DNA from: a virus
Taxonomy: Duplodnaviria > Heunggongvirae > Uroviricota > Caudoviricetes
Length of the DNA stretch: 12,679 bases
Direction: 5' to 3' (one strand)
IMG/VR virus record: IMGVR_UViG_2693429557_000008
Coordinates: 1 to 12,679 of that record
A program made the position numbers and the translations under genes. This document shows positions 1-12,679 of this stretch, piece by piece. A model generated the notes under the pieces. That model was not told the DNA's origin. It worked only from the letters and a program-made list of their open reading frames with translations, and made no database searches. The number at the start of each line of letters is the position of its first letter. Within the stretch, counting starts at the first letter, position 1.

Positions 1-26
1 TTATCGAATACCTCGGTTTACAGGAA
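1..26 (+). other. Invertase crossover site 1 (gix/cix/hix-like 26-bp site, ttatcgaatacc-tc-ggtttacaggaa) lying inside the tail-fibre reading frame
   Basis: Two imperfect 12-bp half-sites flanking a central TC, resembling hix/gix half-sites (TTATCnAAnACC) as I recall them. An exact inverted copy lies at 2953-2978 and a 2-mismatch inverted copy at 4944-4969. The site is read through in frame as I-E-Y-L-G-L-Q-E-T. Confidence 0.8.
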
Positions 27-971
27 ACGGTAAATCAGGCTTCTGGCGCATTACAGAAAAACCAGAACGGCGCAGATATTCCGGGGAAAGATACCTTCAC
101 CAAAAATATTGGTGCCTGCCGCGCATATAGCTCATGGCTGAATATTGGTGGCGATAGTCAGGTCTGGACAACCGCGCAATTTATTTCGTGGCTGGAGAGT
201 CAGGGAGCATTTAACCATCCTTACTGGATGTGCAAAGGCTCATGGGCTTATGCAAATAATAAGGTCATTACAGATACAGGTTGCGGAAATATTTGTCTTG
301 CAGGTGCTGTGGTGGAAGTTATTGGCACTCGCGGCGCAATGACCATACGCGTTACCACGCCGAGCACGTCCAGCGGTGGCGGAATTACTAACGCTCAATT
401 CACTTATATTAATCATGGTGATGCTTACGCTCCTGGCTGGCGACGAGACTACAACACGAAAAATCAACAACCTGCATTTGCTTTAGGGCAAACAGGAAGC
501 ACTGTCGGAAATGATAAAGCTGTTGGCTGGAACTGGAATAGCGGGGTCTATAACGCAAACATTGGTGGCGCATCGACATTAATCCTCCACTTCAATATGA
601 ATACGGGGAGCTGCCCTGCTGTACAGTTCCGCGTGAATTACAGGAACGGCGGTATTTTTTATCGTTCAGCGCGTGATGGTTATGGCTTTGAAGCTGACTG
701 GTCAGAGTTTTACACCACAACCCGCAAACCCTCTGCGGGAGATGTTGGTGCATATACGCAGGCAGAATGTAACTCAAGGTTTATTACAGGTATTCGCCTT
801 GGTGGTCTGTTATCTGTTCAGACATGGAATGGTCCCGGATGGTCTGACAGGTCAGGTTATGTTGTTACCGGTTCCGTTAACTCAAACAGAGATGAACTAA
901 TTGATACAACTCAGGCAAGGCCAATTCAGTATTGCATTAATGGGACGTGGTATAACGCGGGGAGTATTTAA
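1..971 (+). CDS. Tail fibre protein, variable C-terminal segment A (5' end outside window; constant N-terminal part presumably upstream)
   Basis: Open frame from position 3 to TAA at 969-971. It begins inside the crossover site ([12 protein letters not shown]...) and ends with ...RPIQYCINGTWYNAGSI, a C-terminal motif shared with cassettes B and C. A tfa gene follows 2 nt downstream. Confidence 0.85.
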   Translation, partial: IEYLGLQETVNQASGALQKNQNGADIPGKDTFTKNIGACRAYSSWLNIGGDSQVWTTAQFISWLESQGAFNHPYWMCKGSWAYANNKVITDTGCGNICLAGAVVEVIGTRGAMTIRVTTPSTSSGGGITNAQFTYINHGDAYAPGWRRDYNTKNQQPAFALGQTGSTVGNDKAVGWNWNSGVYNANIGGASTLILHFNMNTGSCPAVQFRVNYRNGGIFYRSARDGYGFEADWSEFYTTTRKPSAGDVGAYTQAECNSRFITGIRLGGLLSVQTWNGPGWSDRSGYVVTGSVNSNRDELIDTTQARPIQYCINGTWYNAGSI

Positions 972-973
972 CG

Positions 974-1507
974 ATGATGCACTTAAAAAACATTTCTGCT
1001 GGTAATCCTGAAACAAAAGAGCAATACCAGCTAACGAAACAATTTAACATCAAATGGCTTTATACAGAGGATGGGAAAAACTGGTATGAGGAACAAAAGA
1101 ACTTTCAGCCTGATACGTTGAAAATGGTCTATGACCACAACGGCGTTATTATTTGTATTGAAAAGGATGTTTCAGCAATTAATCCGGAAGGCGCAAGCGT
1201 CGTTGAGGTTCCTGATATTACAGCAAATCGCCGGGCTGATATTTCAGGTAAATGGATGTTCAAAGATGGCGTAGTGATAAAGCGAACTTATACCGGGGAA
1301 GAGCAGAGGCAACAAGCGGAAAATGAAAAGCAAAGCCTGCTACAGCTCGTCAGGGATAAAACCCAGCTATGGGACTCACAGCTACGGCTGGGCATTATTT
1401 CCGACGAGAATAAACAAAAATTAACCGAGTGGATGCTCTATGCGCAGAAGGTCGAATCCACAGACACCTCCAGCCTGCCAGTAACGTTTCCCGAACAACC
1501 AGAATGA
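974..1507 (+). CDS. Tail fibre assembly chaperone (Tfa) for cassette A
   Basis: ATG ATG at 974, 2 nt after the fibre stop, with GGGGAG upstream. The N-terminus MMHLKNISAGNP...DGKNWYEE...FQPDT is the conserved Tfa N-domain, paralogous to the two - strand tfa genes. Ends TGA at 1505-1507. Confidence 0.9.
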   Translation: MMHLKNISAGNPETKEQYQLTKQFNIKWLYTEDGKNWYEEQKNFQPDTLKMVYDHNGVIICIEKDVSAINPEGASVVEVPDITANRRADISGKWMFKDGVVIKRTYTGEEQRQQAENEKQSLLQLVRDKTQLWDSQLRLGIISDENKQKLTEWMLYAQKVESTDTSSLPVTFPEQPE

Positions 1508-1731
1508 GAGAAGGCCCGCTATCGGGCCTTAATTTTTATTCAGGCTTTTGTGGCCATTCAGGATTTGCCGTATCCACACGGCTGACCAGAACACTGTAGC
1601 GTTCCCATGCTTCCAGTCGTGTGCGTTCCTCGTCCGTCGCCATATTCAGCCTGACAGCGCGTTCCAGCGGCTGGATGACTGATTCAGCTTCGGAAAGCAA
1701 TGCGGCCTTTTGTGATTCGGCCTGTTGTTGC
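1273..1731. repeat. Direct repeat copy 1 (~459 bp, ~98-99% identical to 3141-3599): tfa 3' end, terminator and 3' end of the convergent tfa
   Basis: Aligned by eye at a constant offset of 1868 bp. The only differences seen are about 6 substitutions clustered around the terminator. Confidence 0.85.
1511..1538. terminator. Bidirectional rho-independent terminator between convergent tfa genes
   Basis: aaggcccg-ctat-cgggcctt: 8-bp GC-rich stem with 4-nt loop, followed by a T-run on the + strand and preceded by an A-run, so it is U-rich on both transcripts. Confidence 0.65.
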
Positions 1732-2063
1732 AGTTCCTGTTCTGTATATTCCCTCTTTACTACTTTACCATCCAGAAACATCCATTTTCCGTTATTGTCT
1801 GCGTGACGATTTGCCGTAATATCAGGAACTTCAACTATGCTTAGCCCTTCAGGATTAATAGTTGAAACGTCTTTACTGACAGCAACGATGATGTTGTTCT
1901 CATCGTAAGCAATTTTTATGGTGTCTGGCTGAAAATTCTTTTGTTCCTCATACCAGTTTTTGCCATCTTCGCAAAAGAGCCATACCACGCCCGCTTTTTT
2001 AGTTAGCTGGTATTGTTCCGGTGTTTTCGGATTCCCGGCCTTAATATTTTTCAGGTGCATCAT
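1536..2063 (-). CDS. Tail fibre assembly chaperone (Tfa) for cassette B
   Basis: The track ORF 1536..2099 starts at TTG; the conserved [12 protein letters not shown] start is the ATG at 2063, one nt after the cassette B stop. Its C-terminal ~65 aa are identical to the tfa at 3404..3931. Confidence 0.9.
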
Positions 2064-2064
2064 C

Positions 2065-2978
2065 TTAAACACTCCCCACGTTGTACCATATTCCCCCAAT
2101 CAATTTCTGAATTGGCCTTCTGGCAACAGTGTCGACAATATCATCCGCATTGCTGTTAATTGCGGCTGTTAAAACATAACCTGACGCATCGCCAAAGCCG
2201 TAGTCGCGCCATACGTTTTTATATTCAATGCTGCCAAGACGAATATCCCGAACGACATGATTATGCAGCCATGTGCTTAACCAGTTGTTTTCCCACACTG
2301 AACCATAAATATCGCCACTAGACGCAACTTGCGCACCACTTCCCAGCGCAAATCCCCCATCTGTTTTAAAAATGAAATCACCACCACCATCTGAACCGTT
2401 ATTAATATGAACACCATCACCACCGTTATCTTTCCACAAAAACATACGAATTCTTCCGTCTTCGTTGGCGAATGTAATGTGGTGGCGGTAATTACTTTTT
2501 AATCTAAAATTGCTGCCATTAGATTCAATATCTTTATAAAGATGTAATCCTAACTCATCAATATGTCCGATGCGCGAACCATTTGAATAGAAGCTAATAA
2601 TACCATCTCCATCTTGCCTAAATCCGGTGTCGTTATCTCCCAGAACAATGGAGTTTTCACCCAGTGCGTTATCAGTAGCTCCAATAGCTAGACCTCCTTT
2701 AATTTTGGCCCCGTGGCTGACAGATATAGCACCTGTTCTCAGATTTATAGCGAATGGCCTTAATGGGCCGATATTACCGTTTTCGCCTTGTCCTTCAGCC
2801 GTCGGAATGAAATGAAGAAAATCTTCTGAACGACGGAAAATTAGACCGAAGGTATCATTGAAAATTCGCAGCGCATTCACCGTGCCAATTTTCAGTTCTC
2901 CGGTCATTTTATCGCCGGAACGCTGAACGGCGTTACCAGCCTTGTTTACCGTTTCCTGTAAACCGAGGTATTCGATAA
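2065..2978 (-). CDS. Tail fibre alternative C-terminal cassette B (silent in this orientation; no start codon or full constant region of its own)
   Basis: The frame runs from crossover site 2 ([17 protein letters not shown]...) to TAA at 2065-2067 and ends ...[18 protein letters not shown]. The track ORF 2065..3201 extends upstream only by reading through the constant-region fragment and the antisense of a tfa fragment. Confidence 0.8.
2953..2978 (-). other. Invertase crossover site 2 (inverted orientation, 26/26 identical to site 1)
   Basis: The reverse complement of 2949-2978 equals window positions 1-30 exactly. Confidence 0.85.
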
Positions 2979-3131
2979 CGGCAGCAACGGTCGATTTCGC
3001 AAGAATATCCCGCCCGACTTTTGTCAGGGTTGCCAGGCTGGCGACATCATTCCCCGTAAAATACGGAAACTTGCCTGCCGCAGTAGTAAGTCCGGCCAGC
3101 GCCGTCAGGGTGGCATCTTTCGGTTGCTTAC
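2979..3131 (-). pseudogene. Fragment of the tail-fibre constant region (3' ~150 bp) abutting site 2 in inverted orientation
   Basis: In frame with cassette B on the - strand: ...[48 protein letters not shown] followed by IEYLGLQ at the site. It has no start codon and ends abruptly at the boundary of the 459-bp repeat. Confidence 0.7.
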
Positions 3132-3140
3132 CCGCAAGCG

Positions 3141-3375
3141 AGTGATAAAGCGAACTTATACCGGGGAAGAGCAGAGGCAACAAGCGGAAAATGAAAAGCA
3201 AAGCCTGCTACAGCTCGTCAGGGATAAAACCCAGCTATGGGACTCACAGCTACGGCTGGGCATTATTTCCGACGAGAATAAACAAAAATTAACCGAGTGG
3301 ATGCTCTATGCGCAGAAGGTCGAATCCACAGACACCTCCAGCCTGCCAGTAACGTTTCCCGAACAACCAGAATGA
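3141..3375 (+). pseudogene. Truncated tfa gene (3' 235 bp, identical to the 3' end of the tfa at 974..1507)
   Basis: 3141-3375 appears base-for-base identical to 1273-1507 by eye. It encodes only the C-terminal ~77 aa (…KRTYTGEEQRQQAENEKQ…PVTFPEQPE). The track ORF 3124..3375 has no Tfa N-domain. Confidence 0.8.
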
Positions 3376-3378
3376 AAC

Positions 3379-3405
3379 AAGGCCCGATATCGGGCCTTAA
3401 TTTTT
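3379..3405. terminator. Bidirectional rho-independent terminator (second copy)
   Basis: aaggcccg-atat-cgggcctt followed by TTTTT. It is part of the 459-bp direct repeat; the stem is conserved and the loop differs by one base. Confidence 0.65.
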
Positions 3406-3931
3406 ACTCAGGCTTTTGTGGCCATTCTGGCTTTGCCGTATCCACACGGCTGACCAGAACACTGTAGCGTTCCCATGCTTCCAGTCGTGTGCGTTCCTCG
3501 TCCGTCGCCATATTCAGCCTGACAGCGCGTTCCAGCGGCTGGATGACTGATTCAGCTTCGGAAAGCAATGCGGCCTTTTGTGATTCGGCCTGTTGTTGCT
3601 GTTCGTCAGCCGTATAAATCCGTTTAACCACAGCTCCGTCCTTAAACATCCACTTACCGGAATCATCAGCACGACGATTAGCTGTAATATCAGGAACCTC
3701 AACGACGCTATAACCTTCAGGGTTAAGCGTGGAGGCATCTTTGGTGATGGCGACAATAATATTATTTGCATCGTAAACAATCTTTATTGTGTCTGGCTGA
3801 AAGTTCTTCACTTCCTCATACCAGTTTTTTCCGTCCTCAGAGTAAAGCCAGATGACTCCGTGCTTCTTTGTTAACTCATACTGCTCCACTGTTTTAGCAT
3901 TACCTGCTTTTATGTTCTTTAAGTGCATCAT
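3404..3931 (-). CDS. Tail fibre assembly chaperone (Tfa) for cassette C
   Basis: ATG ATG at 3931/3928 ([14 protein letters not shown]...), one nt after the cassette C stop. The track ORF start at 3964 is likely an upstream extension. It resembles e14 TfaE-type chaperones as I recall them. Confidence 0.9.
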
Positions 3932-3932
3932 A

Positions 3933-4961
3933 TTAAATACTCGCCACATTATACCAAGTGCCATTTATATACTTTTGCACTGGCCTGTAATGAACGCCTG
4001 CAATATTATCGGCAGAGTTTTTTCCGGTATCCTGTACGTTAATCCCCGTCAGTACATAGCCTGACGGGCACTGAAAATTCCATGTTTGCCAGTTGTTCAC
4101 TCCATAATATTGCTGTGAACCAAGTCGAACATCTTTCACATATCTGGAATCAAAATTGCCATAGTTGCCGGGAATAACTTGCGAGCCGCAAAGCCAGTTC
4201 CCGTTATTATCCATGTACGCCTGACCATCGGTGCCATTGGCTGTCCTTGAGTTATTAATCATGTAGATGCCAAATTGCTTATTTCCCAGACCGCCAATCA
4301 TAAATTTGCGGTCGGCATGGTCCTGACGGAGCAAAGCCTGAGCACCATCAGTGGATACCGCATTACGTCCCAAAATAACATTCTGGTCACGCATATGAAT
4401 CCACATGCCGGTACTACTGTTAATTGCAAAACGGTTTGCAAATATATCCCCTGTAACATCAAGACCATGCCCCATGCTTATCCGGCCAGTTCTGAGATTA
4501 AGCGTAAAGGGGCGTAGTGGCCCTATATTACCATTTTCCCCTTCATTCTCTCGTGTAGGGATGATATGCAGGCATTCTTCAGAACGACGAAAAATGGCAC
4601 CAAAAGATGAATTAAATATCCTCAGTGCATTGACTGTCGATATTTTCACTTCACTGCTGAAAAGGGCTTCAACAAGAACAGACAAAGCATTCCATTTAAG
4701 ATTCATCAGGTCTTTAGGCCGGGTGCCAATGATGCGGTGTCTCCATTTGAAATATTCATTGCCGTTGTTGCCTGTTTCAAACCACATGTAGGAATCGGTG
4801 TCTGCATCCGAATTATTTTTAAACCCAATCTTTGCCCAGTCAGTATTTCGAATCCAGGCAAGGATTGAGTCGTTTTCAAAAGTAAGTCCACCGGACAACG
4901 TATCGCCATTTTTTTGCACGGCGTTACCAGCCTTGTTTACCGTTTCCTGTAAACCGAGGTT
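3933..4961 (-). CDS. Tail fibre alternative C-terminal cassette C (silent in this orientation)
   Basis: The frame is open from just inside crossover site 3 to TAA at 3933-3935. The track M at 4919 is actually an in-frame GTG (Val) within ...[17 protein letters not shown].... Ends ...[20 protein letters not shown]. The upstream in-frame stop TAA (4962-4964) sits in the outer arm of site 3. Confidence 0.8.
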
Positions 4962-4969
4962 TTAGATAA
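4944..4969 (-). other. Invertase crossover site 3 (inverted orientation; variant outer arm ttatctaaaacc, same central TC)
   Basis: The reverse complement of 4940-4969 is ttatctaaaacctcggtttacaggaaacgg, matching site 1 at 28 of 30 positions. The inner flank (4921-4939) is identical to the flank of site 2. Confidence 0.8.
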
Positions 4970-5023
4970 TGGCCGTTTCCGGCCTGCATGGCATGATTTG
5001 CGCTTTTGGACGGGAGATTCAGC

Positions 5024-5611
5024 GTGCTGATTGGCTATGTAAGGGTATCAACAAATGACCAGAATACAGACCTGCAACGAAACGCTCTTGTTTGTGCAGG
5101 ATGTGAACAAATATTTGAAGATAAATTAAGCGGGACAAAGACAGACCGACCGGGATTAAAACGCGCTTTAAAGCGCCTTCAAAAAGGTGACACGCTGGTT
5201 GTCTGGAAACTGGATCGCCTCGGGCGAAGCATGAAACATCTGATTTCTCTCGTCGGGGAACTACGGGAGCGAGGAATTAATTTTCGCAGTCTGACCGACA
5301 GCATAGATACATCTTCTCCAATGGGGCGTTTTTTCTTCCACGTGATGGGTGCCCTGGCTGAAATGGAACGTGAATTAATTGTTGAACGTACACTGGCCGG
5401 ACTGGCGGCAGCACGCGCACGGGGGCGCACAGGCGGACGTCGACCGAAGCTGACAAAAGAACAGCATGAGCAAATAGCAAGGCTGATCAAAAACGGGCAC
5501 GACAGAAAACAACTGGCAATAATTTACGGCATTGGTATATCGACGATTTATCGTTACCACCCCGCAGGAGAATCAATCGGAACAATAGAGAAGAGTCAGG
5601 AAACAAAATAA
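5024..5611 (+). CDS. Serine-recombinase DNA invertase (Pin/Gin/Cin/Hin family)
   Basis: MLIGYVRVSTNDQNTDLQRNAL... with the catalytic Ser in the YVRVST motif and a C-terminal HTH region. A GTG start at 5024 has GGGAGA 6 nt upstream; the track ORF begins at an upstream TTG at 5006. Ends TAA at 5609-5611. Confidence 0.93.
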   Translation: MLIGYVRVSTNDQNTDLQRNALVCAGCEQIFEDKLSGTKTDRPGLKRALKRLQKGDTLVVWKLDRLGRSMKHLISLVGELRERGINFRSLTDSIDTSSPMGRFFFHVMGALAEMERELIVERTLAGLAAARARGRTGGRRPKLTKEQHEQIARLIKNGHDRKQLAIIYGIGISTIYRYHPAGESIGTIEKSQETK

Positions 5612-5640
5612 CCGCTAATCTGACCATTAGCGGTTTTTGT
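5611..5640. terminator. Bidirectional rho-independent terminator between invertase (+) and U (-)
   Basis: accgctaat-ctgacc-attagcggt: 9-bp stem with 6-nt loop, followed by TTTTTGT on the + strand and by a U-rich run on the - strand transcript. Confidence 0.7.
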
Positions 5641-5646
5641 GTTAAA

Positions 5647-6141
5647 TCAGAACAACCCTTTAACTGAACTGGCCGCGCTGTTAAGGGATGATGTTACCTT
5701 ATCTTTGAAGCCGGACAGCATATCGCTGAACGATGAGGATTGCAGGCGCTCCCGCAAATCCTCATCACAGCGTTCAAGAGTCAGTGAAAATTCTATCTTT
5801 TTCGCCTTACCGTAGCGATCAAACTCGGAGCGGGTCGTATTCGTTTCGGTCAGGACATACATGCCGTAAATCTGCCCGACGCCATCAATCAGAGGCCAGG
5901 GTCGTCCTGTATACGCCTGCGTGGTCAGCAGCGACAGCGACACTTCGCCACCTGTAATTTCAGGATAAAGCACACCAGAAAGAACGATGCGCTCATCACC
6001 TGCACCGATATACTGCCAGCTTGCCGAACGGTTAACGCGTTCATTTTTCACATGCCGCCAGCTTTTGTTTTGCTGTAACTGCTGATGCGGCAATGTACGC
6101 AGCTCAAAAACAAACATGCCGTAGATCATCATCATGGCCAT
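5647..6141 (-). CDS. U: Tail protein U homologue (P2 gpU-like)
   Basis: About 160 aa, immediately downstream of the tape measure gene, with a …SWRH…LSGVL.PE.TGG… pattern I recall from gpU. The start is ambiguous among ATGs at 6141, 6135 and 6132; GAGGAG at 6144-6149 favours 6135 or 6132. Confidence 0.8.
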   Translation of the reverse strand: MAMMMIYGMFVFELRTLPHQQLQQNKSWRHVKNERVNRSASWQYIGAGDERIVLSGVLYPEITGGEVSLSLLTTQAYTGRPWPLIDGVGQIYGMYVLTETNTTRSEFDRYGKAKKIEFSLTLERCDEDLRERLQSSSFSDMLSGFKDKVTSSLNSAASSVKGLF

Positions 6142-6147
6142 GACTCC

Positions 6148-8955
6148 TCAATCTTTATCGTAAAAACTGCCACGCCCGGCACGGGCGCGCCGTTCCATTT
6201 CTGCCCTGACCATTTCACCGACCAGTTTCGCCAGTTCGCGGGGATTCTGCGTAACAACGTTATGCAGATGAACATGAATTTCACCACCAAATCCGGAGGC
6301 AACAGGCTCCCGGTTACGGGAAGTTACAGGAACTGATGCCACTGGAGAGCGTATGGCCTCCGCCACCGGGCGGGAGCTGGCCGCAACAACAGGGACCAGC
6401 GCCGGAGGCAGCGGAGCCGGGACCACGGGTGTGATATTAATTGCGGGGGCAGGCTTACTGACCTGCGCAATCTTCCGCTCCTGCCACTCCCCACGAACAG
6501 CAAGTGCGCGGGGCAGGTTCTTAAAGACAATATCGCCGGGGCCAATGCGTTTTTTCGTCTCATCAACCAGCTTACCTGTGTTATCAGCAATTTTGCTGAG
6601 TCTGCGTAGCGTCCCGGTATTGCTGTCTGTGAGCGGTTTGTTGTCTTTGGGTTTATCACCTCCGGTGCCATTGCCATTTTCCACAGGCTTCGGCGGATTG
6701 ATTTTCGCCAGGTCCCCCTGAAGCAAGGCAACCTTGTCCTGAAGAATGGCCGCACGCTGTGCGTCTTCGATTTTCTTGCGCGCCCTTTCCGCTTCATCCG
6801 GAAGGACGCCAAGTTTTTCAAGTATCCACGCCAGCGTATCCAGTAGCATTTTTGCAGGTGTCAGAACAAGTTGTAACGCACCGCCAAGAACGTTACCGAA
6901 TATCTCGCCAGCACTGGCACATTTATCCAGCGTTTCCTTGCTGGACTCCATCGGTGACAGCAGCGATTTAAACCAGTTAAAGACCTGAATAATCCCATCG
7001 CGCACGACATCAAAAACAGGGCCAAACCGTTCAAAGGTTTCGCGCAACGGGGTCAGCCTTTCCATAATCCCGCTGAACACCCCGGCAAAAAATGCCCTGA
7101 TGGGATCCCAGTATTTCCAGATAAGAACGGCAGCTCCGGCAAGCGCAGCCACGATAAGACTAACCGGACTGAACAGCGCCCCGATAGCGCCACCAAGTAA
7201 AGAAACGGAACCCGTCACCATTCCCCATAATGCAGGCAGAACCCTGACAACATTCATTGATTCGGTCAGGAGAGAAAAACCGAGACGCAACGTAGCCAGC
7301 TTCCCGTGAAGCACCCCAATAACCAGAGACAACGAACCAACCGTTGCTGTTGTCGCCAGCAGTGCGCCTCCCGCTATCAGTAACTGGCGCGTCAGTGCCG
7401 GGTGGGCCTGCGCCAGCGCCGTCACCTTTGAGACAACCCGCGTGAGCCACTGCGTGACAGAACGCAGCGGACCGTCAACCAGATCACTGATGCGAATACG
7501 CAGACCTTCCCATGCACTGCCGAGTGATTTCAGGTTGCCATCAAGGTTATTGGCCATAACCTTTGCCGTGCGTTCTGCCTCACCGCGCGCGCCTTCAAGT
7601 TCTTTTCTCAGTTTGGCTAAGAAGCCGTCACCTGCCGCATCAACGAGGCCCATAAATGATGTGAAAGCCTCTTCTCCGGCAATGTCCTTAAAGAACGATA
7701 CCCGGTCAACCTCCCCGTATTTGCGGGTGGCTTTATAGAGATCGGCCAGCACATTCTCCATCGGGCGCATTTTGCCTTTGGCGTCAGCAACTGACACCCC
7801 CAGCTCTTTCAGTGCTTCTGCCGCTGCCTTTGGCGGTGATGACAGATTGGCCAGGCTTTTACGCAACGCTGTACCTGCATCACTCCCCCTGATACCCATC
7901 TTCGCCAGCACGCCCGCCATCGCTGCGGCCTGCTCCAGCGATATTCCCAGCTTACCCGCCACCGGACCTGCATATTTCATGGTTTCGCCCAGTGCGCGAA
8001 GGTCAGTGTTGGTACGGGTAAACGCTGCGGTAAGTGTGTCACCGACCCGGTCCATCTGGTCAGCAGAGAGGCCGAACTGCGTCAGGATATTGGAACCAAT
8101 ATCCGCCGTCTCGCCGAGGTCCATACCGCCAGCCGTTGCCATGCTCAGCACGCCGGGAAGCGCAGCCTGAATGGCCTGCGGTGTGAAACCAGCCATTGCA
8201 AGAAATGCCTGTCCACTGGCGGCATCGCCTGCGGTGAACTGCGTTTCAGAGCCAAGTTTTAACGCCTGCTCACGCAGCGCCTTAAACTGCGGGCTGTTTT
8301 TATCGATTCGCGTCAGTGCCTGAACACGGGACATCTCTTTCCCGAACCCGATAGCGGGCTGCAAAAAACGCCCGGCAGCATAGCCGCCCGCTGCCGCCGC
8401 ACCTGTTGCCAGCGCACCACCTGTTTTCAGTTTTCCCGCTGTTTCCTGCGCGCGTGAATACCGCTCACGCGCCTGCGTTACACGCGCAAGCGCCCGCCGT
8501 TCGCGTTCAAGCTGGTTGTTGTATTGTCCGGTGCGTCTGATGGCCTGCTGGATGGTGTTATCGCTGCCTGTCAGGGAAATGCCGTGGCGTTTCAGCTCTC
8601 CGCCAAGTTCCCGCATTTTCTGAATTTCCCGTGTGCGCGATTCATTCAGGCGTTCAAGCCGGGTGCTTAACTGCTGCATCAGCTTTTGTTGTTTTTCGCT
8701 GAGCACTGTACCCGTGCGTTGTAACTGATTAAGGGCGTTAAGCTGGCGTCGTGCTTTCACGATGCCCGCATCCGCTTTACTGACAGCGTCACGGGCGCGC
8801 TCAAATGAACGCGCCTGACGCTCGAGATTTTTGATCGCCCCCTGCGTTCGCTGGATGGAGTCACCAAACTGCCCCATCAGGCGGCGGGCGTTTTCGGCAG
8901 GCCGGGTCAGCCTGTCAACGGCGCTGAAAGCGACCCGGATATCAAGAGTCTTCAT
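6148..8955 (-). CDS. T: Tail tape measure protein (P2 gpT-like)
   Basis: A ~935-aa ORF, alanine/glycine-rich, with predicted hydrophobic segments and a proline-rich C-terminal stretch. It sits between E+E' and U, and its start overlaps the E' end. The track start at 8991 is GTG; ATGs at 8964 and 8955 are alternatives, 8955 having GGGAA 8 nt upstream. Confidence 0.88.
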   Translation of the reverse strand: MKTLDIRVAFSAVDRLTRPAENARRLMGQFGDSIQRTQGAIKNLERQARSFERARDAVSKADAGIVKARRQLNALNQLQRTGTVLSEKQQKLMQQLSTRLERLNESRTREIQKMRELGGELKRHGISLTGSDNTIQQAIRRTGQYNNQLERERRALARVTQARERYSRAQETAGKLKTGGALATGAAAAGGYAAGRFLQPAIGFGKEMSRVQALTRIDKNSPQFKALREQALKLGSETQFTAGDAASGQAFLAMAGFTPQAIQAALPGVLSMATAGGMDLGETADIGSNILTQFGLSADQMDRVGDTLTAAFTRTNTDLRALGETMKYAGPVAGKLGISLEQAAAMAGVLAKMGIRGSDAGTALRKSLANLSSPPKAAAEALKELGVSVADAKGKMRPMENVLADLYKATRKYGEVDRVSFFKDIAGEEAFTSFMGLVDAAGDGFLAKLRKELEGARGEAERTAKVMANNLDGNLKSLGSAWEGLRIRISDLVDGPLRSVTQWLTRVVSKVTALAQAHPALTRQLLIAGGALLATTATVGSLSLVIGVLHGKLATLRLGFSLLTESMNVVRVLPALWGMVTGSVSLLGGAIGALFSPVSLIVAALAGAAVLIWKYWDPIRAFFAGVFSGIMERLTPLRETFERFGPVFDVVRDGIIQVFNWFKSLLSPMESSKETLDKCASAGEIFGNVLGGALQLVLTPAKMLLDTLAWILEKLGVLPDEAERARKKIEDAQRAAILQDKVALLQGDLAKINPPKPVENGNGTGGDKPKDNKPLTDSNTGTLRRLSKIADNTGKLVDETKKRIGPGDIVFKNLPRALAVRGEWQERKIAQVSKPAPAINITPVVPAPLPPALVPVVAASSRPVAEAIRSPVASVPVTSRNREPVASGFGGEIHVHLHNVVTQNPRELAKLVGEMVRAEMERRARAGRGSFYDKD

Positions 8956-9471
8956 TGTCTGCATTCCCGCTGCGAAGTGCCGCCCGCTCACGCCAGCTAA
9001 CCACTTCGCCGGGCGTCATCATGAAGATTTCGGCGGGCGACCAGTTAAAAATGGCGGCAATATCCGCCACAAAGTCTTCTATGTGCTCAAAGCACACAAC
9101 CGTGATCAGGCTTCCGTCGCCTGTTCGTTCTTCTCGCCAGAGTCCGCACCGCTCAAAAAATTTACGGCAACCACACATAACTGAATAAAGTCACGGGATG
9201 CCATTTTTTTGATCGTCACTTCATCCAGTCGCGGTGATGTCACGCGTGACAGCAGCGTAAACATGGATTCCGCTTTCAAATTCAGCACATCAGACAGCGA
9301 CAAATCTCGCAGAGATCCAGCCTGCTCAATAGCCCCGGTGATCTCCACATACGTGATTTTTTCGCCGCCTCGCTCAATTGGTTGGGTAAGTTTTACGCCA
9401 CGCTCACTGGTTTCTTTCACAGTGTCAGCAACGACCGTGTTTTCGGTATCGATGTTTTTCGTCTCTTTCAT
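8942..9471 (-). CDS. E+E' fusion produced by programmed -1 ribosomal frameshift (slip at 9154-9160)
   Basis: The -1 frame is blocked by a stop at 9191-9193 and then open from 9190 to TGA at 8942-8944. The E-frame heptamer T-TTT-TTG lies inside this overlap. The predicted fusion is about 176 aa. Confidence 0.7.
9106..9471 (-). CDS. E: Tail assembly chaperone E (P2 gpE / lambda G analogue)
   Basis: ATG at 9471 with AAGGAG 7 nt upstream. The 121-aa zero-frame product ends at TGA 9108-9106. It lies between the tube gene and the tape measure gene and contains a TTTTTTG slippery heptamer. Confidence 0.8.
   Translation of the reverse strand: MKETKNIDTENTVVADTVKETSERGVKLTQPIERGGEKITYVEITGAIEQAGSLRDLSLSDVLNLKAESMFTLLSRVTSPRLDEVTIKKMASRDFIQLCVVAVNFLSGADSGEKNEQATEA
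9154..9160 (-). promoter_or_regulatory. Slippery heptamer T TTT TTG for the E/E' -1 frameshift
   Basis: The - strand reads aaT TTT TTG agc in the E frame (…V N F L S…). This is the heptamer I recall being reported for the P2 E/E+E' frameshift. Confidence 0.65.
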
Positions 9472-9525
9472 CAGGAAACTCCTTTCAGTCAGAGGCGACG
9501 CACTGCGCCGCCTGCATATTACTTA

Positions 9526-10038
9526 TCAGCCAAGCCCGAGCGCGGAACGGATGCGATCGGGCACAATGTCCCTGCCGTCCTTCCGGTAAATGAAGTTCAG
9601 CAGGTCAATCTCCCACAACGGGCGATCGTTAACACTCAGCTTGTAGTAGGTGTTTTTAATGGCGTAAGTGTGTGATGTGGCTTCGCCCTGTTTGGCTTCC
9701 CCCATATCAATTTCCGTCACACGTCCGCGCATTTCGACTTCATACAGGTCGCTTTCAGCGTCGGTGTAGTATTCACCCGCAAAACGCAGCAGCGTACCGT
9801 CAATCGTGCCGCCATACTTAAGGAACAGCTCACGAACTGCGCCCCCCATGACAAAGCTCGCATCAAGCGCGGAGTCATCCAGGCCGAGATCAATACTTAC
9901 CGCTCCCATCATGCCACCACCCCGGTAGCTGTCGGTTTTGCGCGTCAGCTTAGGCAGAGTGACGGACGTCACCTTACCCACTTCGTTTTCACCATCCACA
10001 AACAGCGTAAAAAAGCGAAGATGTTTTGGTACAGCCAT
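9526..10038 (-). CDS. FII: Tail tube protein (P2 FII-like)
   Basis: A 170-aa ORF whose ATG at 10038 overlaps the sheath TGA stop (shared A at 10038, translational coupling). Size and position match the P2 F_I-F_II pair. Confidence 0.88.
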   Translation of the reverse strand: MAVPKHLRFFTLFVDGENEVGKVTSVTLPKLTRKTDSYRGGGMMGAVSIDLGLDDSALDASFVMGGAVRELFLKYGGTIDGTLLRFAGEYYTDAESDLYEVEMRGRVTEIDMGEAKQGEATSHTYAIKNTYYKLSVNDRPLWEIDLLNFIYRKDGRDIVPDRIRSALGLG

Positions 10039-11222
10039 CAGGCACCTCCCAGCACCGCAAATGCGGGACCAAAGAATTCATCAGTAAACGACTGGTAAAG
10101 CTCCATGTCTTCCAGCGGGGGAACAGGCGTATATTTGTAGCGAATACGCACGCGCCCCTGACGTAAATTCGTGGTGCCGTTATCCACCACGTCATACCAG
10201 CACGACGCCCCAATCAGTTTCCCGGCAGTAACCAGTGAATCCAGTTTTGCCCTGATGGCACCGATAACATCCTTCACGTTCGCAGGCGTCAGTGGACTGT
10301 CGATGGTTTCAAACTGCGCTTCCGCAATTGAATCAGCCAGCACCTGTGCGGTTCGGGTATACACCTCAAAGATGTAGGCGTTCGTTTCCGGTGTGCGGTT
10401 GCCCCAGAAGCGGAACCCGTTGCGACGAATAATGGTCGTGATTTCTTTGTTGTTGAGGCTGTTGGCATCACTGTCTTCGGCCTGCAACGACCAGAACACA
10501 TGCCTGGACATCCCCAGCACATTTTTAACCGGAACGTTGGACAGCGATTTGTGCCAGCCCTGCTCATGGTCAATGTACGCACGAAGGCCGCACGCATAGG
10601 CAGGCGCGGGGAACGTTTCGTTTTTGCCACTTTTCGGGTTGTAGGCGATGAAGTCCGGCCATAAGAGCATCACCTCACGTTCGTTGAATTTCTGGCGGTA
10701 GGTAATTGCCTCAGCCATCGTGTTACAGTCATGACATGAGGCATACACAAACGCGCGCAGTTTACCCGCAATCACGCACAGGGATTTTGTCACCGCCTCC
10801 GTGTCCAGCTCCGGCGCGGCCAGAATACGCGGACGGTATCCGATGCTTTCATCCTGCTCTGCAACAAGCAGCGCATACATCCCCGTATAGCTGCCGTCAG
10901 ATTCAGAACCACCGATAACCAGTTGATCCTGCGTTTTTCCGTCTTCTTCTTTGTGTTCAGCCACGCGAACGACGATCACCTTTGTGCTCACCTGGTCTGC
11001 GATGGCCTTAAGCGCACGATAAAGCGTCCCCGTTGTTCCGCATTTTCCCAGCACGTCATTGACGCGGGGCAGCAGTGTGGGCTTGTTCAGCGGGAACAGC
11101 TCCGCGTCCGCATCATCCGCCGTTGCCACGATACCGATAACGCTGGAATCAACATCGTTAATCGCTGTTACCAGGTCGGTATTTTCCGTAACACGGGCAC
11201 CATGAAAACGAGTTTCACTCAT
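10038..11222 (-). CDS. FI: Contractile tail sheath protein (P2 FI-like)
   Basis: A 394-aa ORF with motifs I recall from P2-family sheaths (FPLNKP…, EQGWHK.LSNV, RRNGFRFWGNRT, YTRTAQV, YKYTPVPPLE). ATG at 11222 with AAGGGG 8 nt upstream. Confidence 0.93.
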   Translation of the reverse strand: MSETRFHGARVTENTDLVTAINDVDSSVIGIVATADDADAELFPLNKPTLLPRVNDVLGKCGTTGTLYRALKAIADQVSTKVIVVRVAEHKEEDGKTQDQLVIGGSESDGSYTGMYALLVAEQDESIGYRPRILAAPELDTEAVTKSLCVIAGKLRAFVYASCHDCNTMAEAITYRQKFNEREVMLLWPDFIAYNPKSGKNETFPAPAYACGLRAYIDHEQGWHKSLSNVPVKNVLGMSRHVFWSLQAEDSDANSLNNKEITTIIRRNGFRFWGNRTPETNAYIFEVYTRTAQVLADSIAEAQFETIDSPLTPANVKDVIGAIRAKLDSLVTAGKLIGASCWYDVVDNGTTNLRQGRVRIRYKYTPVPPLEDMELYQSFTDEFFGPAFAVLGGA

Positions 11223-11379
11223 AGCTTCAACCCCTTGTATCCGTTAAATGATTCGGCAACAATCATCACCCACCACGCGCGTAATCTCACCCCTGCGCCA
11301 TTCTCCCGCCACGGCGACAACAAAAAGCAGTAACCCCCTCCGCACGCACATGCGACCATGCCACACAGGGAGGGAGCAG

Positions 11380-12489
11380 ATGACCGACACCACCATGCAA
11401 TTGCTCAGTCAGGGCACAGACCCCGTGAAAATGCCGGATTTTGATATTCTCGCGGAGGGTAAAACGCTGTCAGGCGTGGCAGAGCGCCTGATGAGCCTGT
11501 CACTGACCGACAACCGGGGATTTGAGGCGGACCAGCTCACCATCACGCTGGATGATGCGGATGGTCAGTTGCAGCTACCGCCACGGGGCGCGCGCCTGAC
11601 GGTTCTCATTGGCTGGAAGGGAGAACCGCTGACAGAAAAAGGCACTTACATTGTTGATGAAATCGCTCACGAAGGACCGCCGGACAGGCTGACTGTTTCA
11701 GCCAGAAGCGCAGATTTTCGGGCTGAATTTAACGTTAAACGTGAGGTGTCCTGGCATGATGTGACCGTTGAGCGTGTGGTATCCGCCATCGCTCATCGGT
11801 ATGGTCTGAAACCGCAAATCAGCGAAATGCTGATGGATATCGAAATCGACCACGCCGACCAGACCGAAGAAAGCGACATGTCCTTCCTTACGCGCATGGC
11901 GGAAATGCTGGGCGCAATCACCACGGTAAAAAGCGGTAATCTGTTATTCATCATGCCCGGTGGTGGCGTGAACGCACAGGGCCAGCCGTTGCCCTCGTTC
12001 GCCATCACACGCAGCAGCGGCGATCGCCATCAGTTCCGCATTGCTGACCGCGAAGCGTATACGGGGGTACGCGCTTACTGGCTTGATCTTAATTACGGGA
12101 AAAAGAAAAAAGTCAGCGTGAAACGCCGCAAACCGTCAAAACCAAAAAAGGAGAAAAGCAGCAGCCGGGAAGGCGACTATATGGAAGGTGCGGAAGGCAA
12201 CGTGTTTGTGTTACGCAAAACTTATCAGAACGAGCAGGCAGCAAGACGTGCAGCGGCGGCAAAGTGGCAGCAGCTACAACGCGGAGCCGCATCATTCTCC
12301 ATCACACTGGCGCATGGACGTGCAGAACTCTACCCCGAAATGCATGGCACGGTAACAGGATTTAAAAGCGAGATTGATAATCAGGACTGGATTATTGCAA
12401 AAGCCGAGCACACCATTGATAACAGCGGCTTTACCACGCAGCTTGAGCTTGAGGCAAAAATCCCGGAATGGATAGCAGAAACAGAGTGA
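11380..12489 (+). CDS. D: Tail protein D homologue (P2 gpD-like late tail gene)
   Basis: The ORF track opens at 11248, but the ATG at 11380 has GGGAGGGAG upstream and gives MTDTTMQLLSQGTDPVKMPDFDIL…LTDNRGFEADQL…RSADFR…SWHD…, matching the gpD pattern as I remember it. It includes a lysine-rich low-complexity insert (KKKKVSVKRRKPSKPKKEK). Confidence 0.85.
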   Translation: MTDTTMQLLSQGTDPVKMPDFDILAEGKTLSGVAERLMSLSLTDNRGFEADQLTITLDDADGQLQLPPRGARLTVLIGWKGEPLTEKGTYIVDEIAHEGPPDRLTVSARSADFRAEFNVKREVSWHDVTVERVVSAIAHRYGLKPQISEMLMDIEIDHADQTEESDMSFLTRMAEMLGAITTVKSGNLLFIMPGGGVNAQGQPLPSFAITRSSGDRHQFRIADREAYTGVRAYWLDLNYGKKKKVSVKRRKPSKPKKEKSSSREGDYMEGAEGNVFVLRKTYQNEQAARRAAAAKWQQLQRGAASFSITLAHGRAELYPEMHGTVTGFKSEIDNQDWIIAKAEHTIDNSGFTTQLELEAKIPEWIAETE

Positions 12490-12638
12490 GCAACTTAAAT
12501 GTATTAACTCAGAACGGATCAACACACTCACAACATAGAGTCAATATAGCTGCTCGCTTTGTTCCAGCAAGGATGCCTATTTCTAAGGAAAAACAGAGCA
12601 GAAACATATGGTGTTTTCCTACCTGACATCAGGGGTGG

Positions 12639-12679
12639 TAGACTGGCCCCCTGAATCTCCAGACAACCAGTATCACTTA
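12639..12679 (+). mobile_element. Left terminal inverted repeat of an IS2-like insertion sequence (truncated by window end)
   Basis: tagactggccccctgaatctccagacaaccagtatcactta matches the IS2 left end as I remember it (TAGACTGGCCCCCTGAATCTCCAGACAACCAATATCACTTA…) with one difference. Only about 41 bp are visible, and this is from memory, not a search. Confidence 0.6.

Follow-up and report, generated by a model that had tools for sequence, protein, structure and literature searches.

A constant-region stub of lambdoid stf type beside a third crossover site in the tail-fibre inversion region of a Shigella sonnei P2-like prophage: a candidate scar of cassette capture

The DNA analyzed here (the window, 12,679 nt of an IMG/VR virus record) is the right half of a prophage of the P2 family, in which a cluster of tail-fibre ends and a DNA-invertase gene are followed by the P2-type genes U, T, E, FII, FI, and D. 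The first base of the window is also the first base of a crossover site, while its last nucleotides (12639–12679) extend some 40 nt into the end of an IS2 copy located directly after gene D, which copy is likewise present in S. sonnei CP026802; these two limits suggest that the window is a complete draft contig. The features of the inversion region, with their strands and the evidence for each, are the following:

1–26, plus strand: crossover site 1 (gix-like), TTATCGAATACC-TC-GGTTTACAGGAA; inverted repeats, alignment with Mu gix and P1 cix
27–971, plus strand: cassette A, a variable C-terminal fibre part; Pfam gp37_C
974–1507, plus strand: tfaA, the tail-fibre assembly gene of cassette A; Pfam Caudo_TAP, E 7e-37
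1273–1507, plus strand: repeat copy X1, the last 235 nt of tfaA; exact identity with X2
1536–2063, minus strand: tfaB, the assembly gene of cassette B; Pfam Caudo_TAP
2065–2952, minus strand: cassette B, silent in the window orientation; Pfam gp37_trimer
2953–2978, minus strand: crossover site 2, 26 bp; 34 nt identical with site 1
2979–3140, minus strand: constant-region stub of the lambdoid stf type, 162 bp, comprising the final 54 codons of a fibre's constant part
3140/3141, no strand: blunt novel junction between the stub and a tfaA fragment; flank comparison, zero shared bases
3141–3375, plus strand: X2, a truncated second 3' end of tfaA; identical to 1273–1507, covering only positions 60–131 of the Pfam Caudo_TAP profile
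3404–3931, minus strand: tfaC, the assembly gene of cassette C; Pfam Caudo_TAP
3933–4943, minus strand: cassette C, silent in the window orientation; its 328-aa product is known from S. sonnei P2-like prophages
4944–4969, minus strand: crossover site 3, adjoining the invertase gene; outer half-site TTATCTAAAACC
5024–5611, plus strand: Gin/Pin-type serine DNA invertase, 195 aa; Pfam Resolvase and HTH_7

The cassette placed for expression in the window orientation is A. Each convergent pair of tfa genes encloses a GC-rich hairpin, AAGGCCCGnTATCGGGCCTT, at 1511–1530 and 3379–3398, respectively; the latter scored as terminator-like on both strands in a scan of positions 2800–3500, and the former, being 95% complementary to that copy, would serve the first tfa pair likewise.

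All three crossover sites align with gix of Mu and are 26 bp long, with two half-sites of 12 bp flanking the 2-bp core TC that they all share. Sites 2 and 3 lie in direct orientation to each other, and site 1 is inverted with respect to both. The outer half-site TTATCGAATACC, of the constant-region type, occurs on both site 1 and site 2; the latter is an intact gix-like site in the right orientation. As direct repeats 1,991 bp apart, sites 2 and 3 could in principle also permit a deletion of the C-proximal block. The invertase contains a resolvase catalytic domain and a C-terminal helix-turn-helix (Pfam Resolvase, 1.3e-50; HTH_7, 1.6e-13) and matches the Gin structures 4m6f and 3uj3 with E values of about 4e-101 (3.7e-101 to 4m6f), while its gene, over the first 110 nt, is identical to Mu gin and some 80% identical to a stretch that includes the annotated P1 cin enhancer; by this homology, a recombinational enhancer may lie in the 5' part of the gene. 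The pairs A/tfaA, B/tfaB, and C/tfaC are all present, with B in frame behind the constant-region stub.

The S. sonnei loci used for comparison, strain 53G (HE616528) and CP026802 among them, were fetched by exact-protein look-ups. In both CP026802 and CP032523, the P2-like prophage matched window positions 1–1507 with 100% identity, and positions 3141–12679 were 99.99% identical to that of CP026802, the IS2 copy included. In every fetched S. sonnei locus where the P2-like prophage retained an intact tfaA, however, only two cassettes were present, tfaA leading directly to tfaC and C; the arrangement of the window was found in none of the fetched S. sonnei loci, complete genomes included, B always being located in a lambdoid prophage. 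To judge from these alignments, the window represents the S. sonnei P2-like prophage, equipped with its Gin-type invertase and enlarged by an insertion of 1,868 bp. The segment from site 1 to site 3 occurs in both orientations among the S. sonnei genomes, in which H genes fused to A (656 aa) and to C (678 aa) are both found, and therefore the switch is or was active, whereas no inversion at site 2 was observed. By its invertase, its sites, its cassettes, and the inversion detected, the region is a tail-fibre switch of the Din family (Gin/Cin/Pin/Hin). Three intact sites of mixed orientation under one invertase constitute an arrangement seen in this record only, which arrangement may be a product of assembly.

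Insertion sequences were frequent at this locus among the relatives. In several of the S. sonnei genomes, mostly complete chromosomes, the invertase-proximal site has lost its outer half to an IS600-type element (...CACCTCAAA|CCTCGG), with either C or A adjoining according to the genome; and further IS600 copies were present within A or tfaA at the equivalents of window positions 702, 1210, and 1377.

Compared with the ordinary prophage, the 1,868-bp insertion consists of a lambdoid spacer, tfaB, cassette B, site 2, and the 162-bp stf end, together with a 235-bp duplication, and thus adds a cassette, its chaperone gene, and a third crossover site. According to the pattern of SNPs, the left join lies inside a 54-bp stretch common to both tfa alleles. 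The duplicated copies X1 and X2 are identical over their 235 bp and first differ just past the stop codon, where the first continues into the lambdoid spacer and the second into the P2 spacer. A longer direct repeat was also evident (1273–1740 and 3141–3608, offset 1868), comprising the 235 exact nucleotides, 6 spacer SNPs, and approximately 168 nt of identical tfaB and tfaC 3' ends. The right join falls at tfaA nucleotide 299; there, at 3140|3141, the comparison of flanks indicated a blunt union without a base common to both sides (GCTTACCCGCAAGCGAGTGATAAAGCGAAC). In every full-length gene the constant region continues as ...ACTAACG upstream of CGCTTGCGGG, whereas the window has antisense tfaA instead.

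The minus-strand reading frame from 2065 to 3201 proceeds from cassette B through site 2 and into 54 codons resembling a constant region, which continuity bears out the original prediction that the 3' end of a fibre constant region would lie beyond site 2 on the minus strand and in frame with cassette B. Similarity to known fibre constant regions, whose lack that prediction had named as its refutation, was evident in the protein search: the 71-residue peptide matched P2 H at 94% and both lambda Stf and P1/P7 Sc at 71–73%, the matches being situated in all of these proteins alike just upstream of the crossover site. As to the limits of the stub, the start at 2979 could be maintained, but the end, first placed at about 3131, had to be shifted to 3140 since the homology to the constant region ends exactly there. 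The remainder of the open frame, 3141–3201 (61 nt), is antisense tfaA and not fibre sequence, so that its openness is accidental.

At the nucleotide level, the 183 bp of window positions 2958–3140 agreed without a mismatch (100% identity) with the 3' terminus of the constant part of lambdoid stf in S. sonnei genomes (E about 2e-93), a match which, as aligned, is far beyond chance. In contrast, the 162 bp of the stub had 7 mismatches with the P2-like H of the same genomes (95.7% identity), and wherever stf and H differ, at all 7 positions, the stub agrees with stf. The comparisons of flanks and identities thus uphold the presence of an inverted copy of the constant-region/crossover-site junction, though not the notion of a duplicate of the resident constant region, which fails before the complete identity with the stf of another prophage. 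On the evidence of these bases, the stub is a piece of the stf gene from a lambdoid prophage of the same Shigella genome and not a copy of the resident H.

In complete S. sonnei genomes, B and tfaB belong to the lambdoid prophage adjoining trp: the 280-aa product of cassette B is identical to that of a gene there, and window positions 1508–2969 differ from the lambdoid tfaB/B block by 0–2 bases. The stf of that prophage has its own invertible segment, beyond which a truncated recombinase gene and a methyltransferase gene follow. In consequence of that truncation, any flipping of the lambdoid segment would need an invertase in trans, such as the one encoded in the window. The cassette carried by the segment in complete genomes is one other than A, and the state with stf fused to B was not seen among the fetched S. 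sonnei genomes. A similar lambdoid locus in E. coli IPCEC48, nevertheless, is fused to a B-like cassette sharing only its start with B, and therefore such a donor state exists. We considered that E. coli locus as a twin of the left half of the window, and rejected it in that the match is confined to the constant region and the beginning of B.

With slightly more confidence than doubt, we read the stub as a recombination scar without function, left by the capture of a cassette. The resident would have had its normal layout, in which the H constant region is followed by site 1, by A and tfaA with tfaC and C on the opposite strand, by site 3, and by the gin-like invertase gene; the donor, necessarily B-fused on this reading, would have been a lambdoid prophage in the same cell whose stf segment had been inverted to join B to the stf constant region. 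The copied piece would have begun 162 bp upstream of the crossover site, taken in that site together with cassette B and tfaB, and reached into the 3' region common to the tfa genes. One of its ends would have been joined by homology within the 54-bp stretch common to the tfa alleles, and the other illegitimately and bluntly at tfaA nucleotide 299, thereby duplicating 235 bp of tfaA; the 162 bp would have been carried along only because the break in the donor lay upstream of the site. Against this reading we count that the junction is unique, that the relatives have two cassettes, that no inversion at site 2 was observed, and that all the pieces are identical to two loci of one genome, as would also be the case in a chimera.

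Other routes to the same structure were considered and rejected. The integration of a lambdoid-derived circle by a single crossover in X is incompatible with neither copy of X having the lambdoid tfa SNPs. Recombination by the invertase at quasi-sites would require a dinucleotide that the parents do not share at the break, which break, moreover, is not located 12 bp from the end of a GATAA-type half-site. A microhomology-mediated template switch could have used a shared GCG, but the expected product keeps a T that is absent from the window. Finally, as regards a join mediated by an insertion sequence, the junction in the window contains no IS bases; in the relatives, IS600 occurs at the three positions cited above.

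An assembly error must be weighed against a capture, and the junction is where the two diverge. If the isolate contained both prophages in their ordinary form, the P2-like one with two cassettes and the lambdoid one, then lambdoid sequence (the spacer, tfaB, B, the site, and the stf constant end) might have been threaded into the P2-like contig via the shared tfa repeats, either by the assembler or during gap closing, in which circumstance the junction would not exist in the cell; this explanation we consider a real possibility, though a doubtful one. The junction 30-mer and 22-mer were absent in exact scans of genome, viral, and metagenome collections, none of which contained a second copy of the junction; a BLAST of positions 2850–3300 against 5,426 complete E. 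coli genomes disclosed no place that spans it; and the exact-protein look-ups, made with all gene calls that seemed plausible across the junction or near the contig edge, retrieved no contig carrying it. These results all speak for a chimera, as does the fact that none of the S. sonnei loci fetched, those of complete genomes among them, has the layout. In the same direction, the window resembles a complete draft contig whose repeats could be traversed only by pair-based repeat resolution, and the change from tfaA to the lambdoid spacer occurs within 54 bp of identity, which would be ambiguous for a small-k graph.

Two observations on other isolates also speak for a chimera. Two SKESA contigs from other S. 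sonnei isolates (GCA_029232655.1 and GCA_021218365.1) start at TAGTGATAAAG, one base to the left of the position equivalent to the junction, which proximity marks the spot as an assembly breakpoint elsewhere; IS600 may have inserted there and duplicated a TAG target, a cause suggested by the repeated hits of IS600 on this region in S. sonnei, or else the same rearrangement as in the window. In addition, three draft scaffolds from other isolates (L003, L006, and L008) join lambdoid and P2-like pieces at these same genes across gaps of 1–11 N, the lambdoid J, Lom, and Stf being placed beside the P2-like invertase and tail genes; in L003, a tfa gene with a lambdoid 5' end is joined to tfaC. Such joins could be either recombination between prophages or scaffolding errors. 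Scaffold L008, in which H, site 1, and 71 bp of A adjoin other DNA, was tried as a natural example and was discarded, the join there being an 11-N gap.

The window itself, by contrast, contains no Ns. Furthermore, with no bases common to the two sides, k-mers across the junction could come only from reads or from a gap-closing tool; since an assembler based on a k-mer graph needs reads that span a blunt join without shared bases, that join argues for a real junction. Nor does either side of the junction lie at a repeat boundary explicable by a single k: the stub ends 31 nt past the last SNP between stf and H, the divergence of site 1 sets in at base 35, and 39–41 nt of IS2 overhang, so that the junction as a node boundary of a de Bruijn graph was rejected for want of any one k that fits. 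A chimera would also have had to yield a coherent layout, with one A, one 5' part of tfaA, intact sites, and reading frames preserved.

Another alternative is that the window records the end point of a large chromosomal rearrangement, its left part being the lambdoid locus after a deletion or inversion between the prophages, with no H upstream. S. sonnei is rich in insertion sequences and rearrangements, IS600 having been found at several places here in the relatives, and draft scaffolds put lambdoid tail genes beside the P2-like invertase; yet positions 1–1507 are completely identical to the A and tfaA of the P2-like prophage, whereas the lambdoid segment of complete genomes contains a different cassette, the half-site on site 1 is that of the constant side and not of the invertase side, and no IS adjoins the junction. 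We accordingly hold such a rearrangement to be quite improbable.

What lies upstream of the window start is, in contrast, probably the H constant region: the half-sites of constant type on sites 1 and 2 and the complete identity of positions 1–1507 with the P2-like prophage point to H upstream of site 1, and in S. sonnei genomes the H constant region leads into this same site. In CP026802, the H constant region occupies the 162 bp preceding site 1, and the reverse complement of that stretch differs from window positions 2979–3140 at 7 positions. An imperfect inverted repeat would hence be expected around sites 1 and 2, of about 190 bp with 7 mismatches. From that homology, we infer that a rare RecA-dependent inversion of A and B could be supported, leading to the same in-frame outcome; and this homology with the actual H gene is likely the only effect of the stub.

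A function of the stub itself may be read into the original prediction, in which the crossover site was embedded in a longer inverted repeat, as in P1, and an internal start might allow the low-level expression of a truncated constant-plus-B protein; on that view, the repeat would aid inversion. In favor of that functional role, a repeat of about 190 bp would indeed exist if H were upstream, and the stub is in frame with B. With respect to expression, however, no in-frame ATG, GTG, or TTG was found inside the stub; upstream, the only in-frame starts were TTGs at 3180, 3183, and 3201, all of them in antisense tfaA and without a ribosome-binding site; a consensus scan of positions 2800–3500 revealed no minus-strand promoter; and a terminator-like hairpin (3378–3399) is situated upstream of the stub on the minus strand. 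A truncated product is unlikely on all these counts. As for an aid to inversion, the long repeats of P1 are inside the crossover points, while Mu and the two-cassette S. sonnei relatives work with the short sites only; and the stub, besides being of the stf and not of the H allele, ends at an arbitrary blunt break. A functional repeat is therefore very improbable and already largely refuted, and the stub, for which no binding role is known either, is most likely without function—none being evident, in fact, whether the junction is real or chimeric.

If the captured cassette is real, the switch would gain a third outcome. Recombination between sites 1 and 2 would fuse H to B in frame; recombination between sites 1 and 3 would fuse H to C and turn site 2 round, after which flip sites 2 and 3 would be an inverted pair able to invert the A/B block. 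A three-way switch would result, in which the DNA could adopt four arrangements and express three fibres, every one of them with its own assembly gene behind it; and it is this third crossover site with its three-way switch that we infer as the outcome. That the capture was very recent, took in a whole expressed fibre end, and turned a two-way Gin-type switch into a three-way system resembling Min seems to us nearly, though not quite, an even proposition.

Among the known systems, the C segment of P1 and P7 with its Cin invertase shares with the window the switching of fibre C-termini by a serine invertase, a related end of the Sc protein, and long inverted repeats at the sites. The analogy originally drawn with that segment nevertheless proved to be reversed, in that the P1 repeats are inside the cix crossover points, whereas the extension in the window is outside site 2. 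In the P1 locus that we fetched, the arms of the 636-nt repeat occupy 1715–2350 and 5357–5992, with crossovers at 1725/1726 and 5981/5982, so that the repeats lie almost wholly inside the segment and encode the shared start of both variable parts; the window has no such repeats inside its crossover points encoding a common start of the variable parts, its own repeat being on the constant side and consisting of a truncated foreign allele that ends bluntly.

The G segment of Mu with Gin—found also in S. flexneri SfMu and in D108—has nearly the same 26-bp sites and a Gin-like invertase, and cassettes A and C with their tfa genes are about 90% identical to S/U and S'/U' of Mu; but Mu has two sites and two cassettes, with gin directly beyond the distal site and no constant-region sequence there, and the element that hosts the window's region is a P2-family prophage and not Mu. 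The lambdoid stf locus, for its part, supplied cassette B and tfaB as well as site 2 and the stub, to judge by 100% identity, though the constant region is full-length in that gene (875 aa) and the far site precedes the truncated recombinase and methyltransferase genes.

The multiple-inversion region Min of plasmid p15B, the subject of Sandmeier et al. (1990; reference 34 in PMC5903667), reportedly combines more than two crossover sites with one Din-family invertase and several C-termini for one constant part. It has six sites and is regarded as a product of recombination between fibre genes. The window follows the same logic on a small scale, with the differences that it has three sites, a putative inversion at the extra site, and a constant-region stub that marks the donor gene. 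If the junction is real, the window would be a record, at single-base resolution, of one step by which inversion regions gain cassettes and crossover sites; an expressed fibre end would have been imported from a prophage of the same chromosome, with the stub identifying both the donor gene and its orientation state, and a third host range might thereby be open to the P2-like prophage. Such a junction would also support the old idea that clusters of the Min type grow by recombination of fibre genes, and the reading as a capture, if true, would amount to the assembly of an invertible fibre-cassette cluster from prophages of the same cell, caught in the act. If the window is, alternatively, a chimera, draft contigs of genomes rich in insertion sequences and prophages, such as those of Shigella, can fabricate multi-site inversion regions. 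In relation to all these systems, the stub is the scar of a donor gene, or possibly an artefact, within a system of a known kind.
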